This document shows, piece by piece, positions 30,422 through 30,605 of a stretch of 64,000 bases of DNA. Origin of the DNA: Escherichia coli (GTDB lineage Bacteria; Pseudomonadota; Gammaproteobacteria; Enterobacterales; Enterobacteriaceae); the NCBI RefSeq assembly GCF_045037415.1, contig NZ_CP173438.1, one strand, 5' to 3'. The notes under the pieces are model-generated. The model ran no database searches, was not told the DNA's origin, and was given only the letters and a program-made list of their open reading frames with translations. The number at the start of each line of letters is the position of its first letter. The first letter of the stretch is position 1. The translations under genes and the position numbers were made by a program.

Positions 30422-30605
30422 GTAGGCCGGATAAGGCGTTTACGCCGCATCCGGCGACAGGAGCCAAATGCCGGATGCAACGCTGGCGCGTTTTATCCGG
30501 CCTACAATGAGCACAACATACTGATTTATATTGTTTTGTATGCCGGGTAAGGCATTCACGCCGCATCTGGCGACAGGAACTAAATGCCGGATGCGTCGCT
30601 GGTTT
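30422..30605. repeat. BIME cluster (four REP units) between mglC and preA
   Basis: gtaggccggataaggcgtttacgccgcatccggcg; gccggatgcaacgctggcgcgttttatccggcctac; gtatgccgggtaaggcattcacgccgcatctggcg; gccggatgcgtcgctgg in alternating orientation. Confidence 0.8.

Follow-up and report, generated by a model that had tools for sequence, protein, structure and literature searches.

The space between the convergent genes mglC and preA in this strain of E. coli is occupied by a BIME-2-type cluster of REP units that is almost certainly the orthologue of REP156 of K-12. We believe that this element, lying where the transcripts of two operons meet, also serves the 3' ends of both mRNAs, and we give identity and function taken together a probability of about 0.6. 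The element itself is already known and is an ordinary member of BIME-2. What is mildly new is its setting: it appears to stand where Citrobacter and Kluyvera carry a terminator, and E. coli is split approximately 52 to 45 between two of its alleles. Coordinates given below refer to the window, that is, the whole stretch of 64,000 nucleotides that was analysed, unless another contig or genome is named.

Architecture and identity of the mglC-preA array

The original prediction placed a BIME cluster between convergent mglC and preA, and the NCBIfam matches of the two genes together with the REP consensus matches between them confirm it. mglC is the last gene of mglBAC, with MglB and MglA encoded upstream, and preA is the last gene of preTA, with a PreT-like protein encoded upstream; the mglC 3'UTR enters the array from one side and the preA 3'UTR from the opposite side. 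The gap between the two stop codons runs from 30363 to 30604 (242 bp), and PreA ends in ...KEHPVTL. Reading along the + strand, the features are as follows.

29352 to 30362, + strand: mglC, galactose ABC transporter permease (NCBIfam NF007014, 641 bits, full-length match)
30363 to 30395, no strand: non-repeated 33-bp spacer after the mglC stop, with a small hairpin GAATGTGG..GCATTC
30396 to 30421, no strand: tail-side ('l'-type) linker, copy 1, 26 bp, at the start of copy 1 of a 116-bp direct repeat
30422 to 30455, - strand: PU1, Y-type REP, GTAG...CATCCGGC as read on the + strand, 1 mismatch to the Y consensus
30456 to 30469, no strand: S linker 1, head-to-head, 14 nt, GACAGGAGCCAAAT, aligning with the naRNA4 linker
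30470 to 30505, + strand: PU2, Z2-type REP ending in CTAC, 2 mismatches to the Z2 consensus
30506 to 30537, no strand: tail-to-tail 'l'-type linker, copy 2, 32 nt, from the repeat search and the unit scan
30538 to 30571, - strand: PU3, degenerate Y-type REP, 4 mismatches, with GTAT for GTAG
30572 to 30585, no strand: S linker 2, 14 nt, GACAGGAACTAAAT, from the repeat search
30586 to 30608, + strand: PU4, an internally deleted REP made of a 17-nt Z2 head half (30586-30602) and then TTTTAC
30605 to 31846, - strand: preA, dihydropyrimidine dehydrogenase subunit (NCBIfam NF006183, 686 bits, full-length match)

Because 30396-30486 and 30512-30602 form a direct repeat with a period of 116 bp (82% identical), the array is a tandem duplication of one linker-Y-S-Z2 module, present in about 1.8 copies; Tandem Repeats Finder found nothing at this copy number and identity. 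Units and linkers make up 184 of the 242 bp of the gap, or 207 of 242 bp when the repeated left linker at 30396-30421 is counted. Four REP units in alternating orientation had also been claimed; the orientation does alternate, but only three of the units are full and the fourth is truncated. The REP consensus scan that had been proposed as a check returned PU1, PU2 and PU3 with 1, 2 and 4 mismatches, respectively, and PU4 by its head half only. With up to 3 mismatches allowed, the Y consensus has three matches in the window, against 0.00 expected from 100 shuffles. The foot tetranucleotide is GTAG in PU1, CTAC in PU2, GTAT in PU3 (GTAG in K-12) and TTAC in PU4, the last being CTAC at three loci recovered from other contigs (L014, L031 and L042). 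The half unit of PU4 ends 2 bases from the preA stop codon, and the TTTTAC that follows it holds the complement of that stop (30605-30607), which the tail position of PU4 overlaps. Both strands of the array are predicted to fold at about -110 kcal/mol (z = -5.5 and -7.6 against shuffled sequence), with PU1 and PU2 pairing as one long hairpin in the minimum-free-energy fold.

In BIME-2, a short S linker connects Y and Z2 units, and the combination is repeated in tandem (Bachellier/Gilson classification; PMC3333891). The array shares with this family its unit types, its head-to-head S linker, its tail-side l and s linkers, its tandem repetition and a copy number that varies between strains, and differs in that its last unit has an internal deletion and is fused to a stop codon, and in having only about 1.8 copies of the module. 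REP156 is listed at K-12 2236535-2236684 as 'convergent, preA/mglC' (supplement, bioRxiv 10.64898/2026.03.23.713779), an interval that maps to 30421-30570 of the window and so to the three full units; the coordinates come from the preprint supplement, as the feature table of NC_000913.3 contains no REP features. The orthologous locus of K-12 MG1655 has the same Y-S-Z2-l-Y-S-half unit order in the same 242-bp gap, and over 600 bp, including the ends of the flanking genes, the two loci are 96% identical. They differ by a few substitutions in the linkers and in PU3, which has 4 mismatches and GTAT here but 1 mismatch and GTAG in K-12, and the K-12 annotation, spanning the three full units only, leaves out the half unit.

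The first pair of units also matches the Rfam model naRNA4 (RF02564): the interval 30425-30502 reaches 88 bits on the + strand, above the gathering score of 59.5, with PU1 supplying the first hairpin and PU2 the second; the second, truncated pair reaches 29.9 bits and stays below that score. REP325, the naRNA4 element between yjdM and yjdN, is built from the same 77-nt Y-linker-Z2 module. Unlike the 3.5 units between convergent genes described here, REP325 has 12 hairpins and lies between tandem genes.

Two open reading frames at this locus had been described as spurious calls seeded by the REPs. That description suits the frame at 30336..30566 on the - strand, which crosses the repeats; its 76-aa product corresponds to no RefSeq CDS in the 6 annotated genomes, and for annotation it should not be called a gene. 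It does not suit the frame at 30164..30355 on the + strand, which lies inside mglC in a different frame and is unrelated to the REPs. A Pfam search gave no match for either.

The array is extragenic and highly repeated, a query with the 601-bp locus finding matches at 23 places in the median E. coli genome. Six more REP-like units are scattered through the window, at 8606-8630, 12223-12257, 14277-14310, 34336-34376, 40660-40691 and 47446-47479. They include one Z1-like unit, one palindrome of two GCCGGATG heads, Y types and one Z2, and PU1 recurs unchanged at 47446-47479; none of the six belongs to a pair that scores as naRNA4. The window contains no gene for RAYT (rayT/yafM), which mobilises REPIN doublets. 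Further Rfam matches fall on a Peptidase-S11 cis-regulatory RNA motif at 42169-42249 on the + strand (72.8 bits, gathering score 34.8) and on an OrzO-P type I antitoxin RNA at 62624-62699 on the - strand (98.6 bits, gathering score 60). The latter points to a zor-orz toxin-antitoxin locus close to the window's end, and K-12 is not known to have one.

Alleles in Escherichia and spacers in related genera

A comparison of REP copy number across strains had been suggested at the outset, and copy number does vary at this locus. A query made of the flanks alone matched 5,413 of the 5,426 complete E. coli genomes, 7 of the 5,413 being without a contiguous locus. The gap of 59 matched genomes, taken as a spread sample, measures 242 bp in 31, 70 or 69 bp in 26 and 126 bp in 2. 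Junction-specific queries found the Z2-linker-Y junction of the four-unit form in 2,823 of 5,426 genomes (approximately 52%) and the 70-bp form in 2,444 (approximately 45%); the genomes with neither junction, about 159 or up to 3%, have the 126-bp form, other forms or an unmatched locus. The 126-bp allele is Y-S-half unit and is shorter by exactly one 116-bp module. The 70-bp allele, which is missing the spacer at 30363..30395, places a perfect mini-hairpin of 21 nt, GCCGGATGCgctGCATCCGGC, before S and the half unit, and contains no complete Y unit. This mini-hairpin resembles the remnant of a tail-to-tail Z2/Y doublet that has lost its interior. In E. coli Nissle 1917 (NZ_CP171242.1) the mglC flank alone matches, the preA side being missing or rearranged.

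Other arrangements were found among the species-level representatives of Escherichia.

E. albertii: Y-S-Z2-l-half unit
E. whittamii and E. coli E69: Z2-l-Y-S-half unit
Escherichia sp. E1V33: Z2-short linker-Y-S-half unit
Escherichia sp. MOD1-EC7003: Y-S-half unit
E. coli SCPM-O-B-8794: five units, Z2-l-Y-S-Z2-l-Y-S-Z2, the last of full length with a CTAC tail that overlaps a preA TAG stop

A BIME is present in all 8 of the Escherichia species-level loci, and in the alleles examined a terminal unit adjoining the preA stop is a constant feature of the genus; at L014 this unit is of full length and ends in CTAC, giving a TAG stop. Since the number of units ranges from half to five among Escherichia lineages, and since 45% of E. 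coli have only the mini-hairpin and the half unit, unit number is clearly under no tight constraint. The array and its changes in copy number would have arisen by the usual dynamics of REPs and BIMEs, namely amplification and deletion that are either mediated by RAYT (TnpA-REP) or recombinational. Such variation between strains is an already described property of the BIME family.

The related genera have a different spacer. A contig pattern scan recovered the locus from Escherichia, Citrobacter, Kluyvera and Pseudocitrobacter and not from E. fergusonii; from Salmonella it recovered one locus only (L098, Salmonella enterica subsp. arizonae, 5320-5342), which ends 22 nt past a preA TAG stop. In the 12 Citrobacter-type loci, one of them a MAG labelled Raoultella, the last codons lie 62-73 nt apart with the stops included, corresponding to a gap of approximately 57-68 bp, and the spacer contains AAAAAGCCCGGTGCAG-loop-CTGCACCGGGCTTTTTT, that is, an A tract, a GC stem and a T tract. 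Three Citrobacter spacers were folded with ViennaRNA and gave an 11-15-bp GC-rich stem flanked by A/T tracts, a predicted terminator hairpin on both strands. By these folds the Citrobacter spacer is a canonical bidirectional intrinsic terminator; the simple terminator scan did not report this hairpin, and folding of the spacer was used there instead. A comparable GC-rich hairpin with a T tract follows mglC directly in Kluyvera ascorbata (82 nt) and K. sichuanensis (141 nt).

In the gap of the window, the simple terminator scan gave one weak site, no more than is expected by chance. We considered whether the array could itself be a bidirectional intrinsic terminator and rejected this, as it does not offer a GC hairpin with a U tract on both strands. 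The ancestral terminator is kept in no Escherichia allele examined. Since the spacers of Citrobacter and Kluyvera have the terminator and no Escherichia allele does, the BIME appears to occupy the place of an ancestral bidirectional terminator. The two elements share their position and presumably their job, the ending of both converging transcripts. The terminator, in contrast to the array, is a single GC-rich hairpin with A/T tracts, devoid of REP sequence and of further copies elsewhere in the genome.

The boundary with preA was examined in the same genera. The end of PreA and its TAA stop fall at the same position in both, the protein ending in ...ALTL in Citrobacter and in ...PVTL in E. 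coli. Donation of the preA stop by a REP tail (CTAC giving TAG) was considered and rejected, as Citrobacter already has TAA at that position (TTACAACG); the stop is thus ancestral, with the array doing no more than adjoin or overlap it. That the junction with the preA stop was a target for RAYT is speculation on our part. The last codons of preA read CCG GTA ACG TTG TAA in Escherichia and GCG TTA ACG TTG TAA in Citrobacter (30605-30620 compared with L016 and L025), and the CCGG created in the Escherichia version is complementary to that of the half unit, so that the two can pair and enclose the stop codon in a predicted REP-like hairpin. On the other side of the locus, Pseudocitrobacter and some Kluyvera have an extra gene of approximately 500 bp between mglC and preA (L075, L020, L064 and L050). 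One of these loci (L075, Pseudocitrobacter vendiensis, 9390-10103) has its own Y-long linker-Z1 REP pair directly 3' of mglC, so that REPs have colonised this spacer independently there.

The 3' ends of mglBAC and preTA

We propose the following model for the array. It would form the shared 3' untranslated end of the mglBAC and preTA transcripts, and its stable RNA hairpins would set the 3' end of each mRNA and protect it, protection coming from a block to 3'-to-5' exonucleases and ending from partial, Rho-assisted termination. We believe this to be the most likely function of the hairpins since related genera have an intrinsic terminator at this place and Escherichia has none, and by analogy with other REPs we regard a 3'-end role for the two mRNAs as moderately likely. 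According to the folds and the terminator scan, no strong structure apart from the array lies downstream of either operon.

Work on other REPs is consistent with this proposal. REP325, also an array of Y and Z2 units, is a partial Rho-dependent terminator and stabilises the mRNA upstream of it (bioRxiv 10.64898/2026.03.23.713779); terminator and stabiliser action in a 3'UTR has been shown there. Where REPs lie between convergent genes, both genes tend to be more highly expressed, and 78 REPs in such positions fall in mapped bidirectional terminators. An in vitro Rho-binding peak is reported at K-12 2236464-2236532 on the + strand, 3 bp from REP156, and carries no in vivo flag (bioRxiv 10.64898/2026.03.23.713779); it extends over the final 36 nt of preA and over the half unit. 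The original prediction had suggested that clusters of this kind can act as mRNA stabilisers and gyrase sites; stabilisation of mRNA 3' ends and gyrase binding are both plausible for the class. A further step, that a BIME-2 array displaced the ancestral terminator in Escherichia and took over its job, its architecture and half unit now setting lineage-specific expression, is one that we put forward tentatively and regard as possible rather than probable.

The array may instead be a purely selfish or neutral BIME in a permissive spacer, with no function for the host, the loss of the terminator having been tolerated as Rho or downstream structures stop transcription. The architecture of the locus is extremely variable within the genus, two E. 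coli alleles stand near 50/50, PU3 is decaying in this strain (GTAG to GTAT, with 4 mismatches) and Pseudocitrobacter appears to have gained a different REP pair in the same spacer independently, all of which would suit such an element. However, every Escherichia allele keeps at least one stable predicted hairpin beside the preA stop and none retains the ancestral terminator, and REPs as a class affect the expression of neighbouring genes; we consider an array devoid of function rather unlikely, but a serious rival. Recruitment of DNA gyrase, which would remove positive supercoils between the converging operons, is compatible with an RNA role and draws on the BIME-2 composition of the array, on its position between convergent genes and on Topo-Seq data in which gyrase cleavage sites are over-represented in BIME-2, mainly in Y units (PMC6379681). 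The same study found only 'a subset of BIME-2' to be cleaved and does not have this locus among those that it names (PMC6379681), and the 70-bp allele, present in 45% of genomes, is without a complete Y unit; we consider a gyrase site here unlikely. We hold a similarly low expectation that the half unit damps the translation of PreA by pairing with the PU3 head or with the final codons of preA, in a hairpin that starts within 15 nt of the stop codon, stalls terminating ribosomes and lowers the yield of the protein. These effects are reported for REPs less than 16 nt from a stop codon, as summarised in PMC12306157, and the predicted folds provide for them: on the preA strand the minimum-free-energy fold has a stem beginning 9 nt past the stop, other folds take the stop codon into a stem-loop, and the half unit lies 2 bases from the stop in all Escherichia alleles. 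Against this, the element nearest to the stop is a half unit and no canonical REP hairpin, and the predicted stems vary between alleles.

Two further roles have been attached to relatives of the array. The naRNA4 match, exceeding its gathering score, would allow the Y-S-Z2 pair to be processed to a naRNA4-like, nucleoid-associated RNA that condenses the chromosome with HU, a model proposed in PMC4550694. However, REP325/naRNA4 has since been found to give no measurable nucleoid compaction and no stable ternary complex, by the same laboratory and collaborators (bioRxiv 10.64898/2026.03.23.713779), and the Rfam match reflects shared REP sequence, the second pair scoring only 29.9 bits; such a role for the array is highly improbable. 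IHF binding, which the original prediction had included, is known for some BIMEs and belongs to BIME-1, the class made of Z1 and Y units with a long L linker (PMC3333891); nothing specific to this locus speaks for it. The gap lacks a Z1 unit and a long L linker, and the IHF consensus WATCAANNNNTTR has no match anywhere in 30363-30604, where on direct reading the best linker sequence has a core mismatch. With no Z1 match, head-to-head linkers of only 14 nt and no IHF consensus, the array was rejected as a member of BIME-1, and we give an IHF-binding element of the RIB/RIP kind next to no chance.

Our preferred reading therefore remains that of a BIME-2 element, orthologous to REP156, with a role at the 3' ends of mglBAC and preTA. 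If the array has indeed taken over the job of the terminator in the manner that we tentatively propose, the expression of galactose uptake and of pyrimidine catabolism would differ between lineages of E. coli, and the locus would be a natural allelic series for testing REP function. For tests of REPs in shared 3'UTRs the locus offers a clean series, running from the terminator of Citrobacter through the mini-hairpin to the two-, four- and five-unit alleles of Escherichia.
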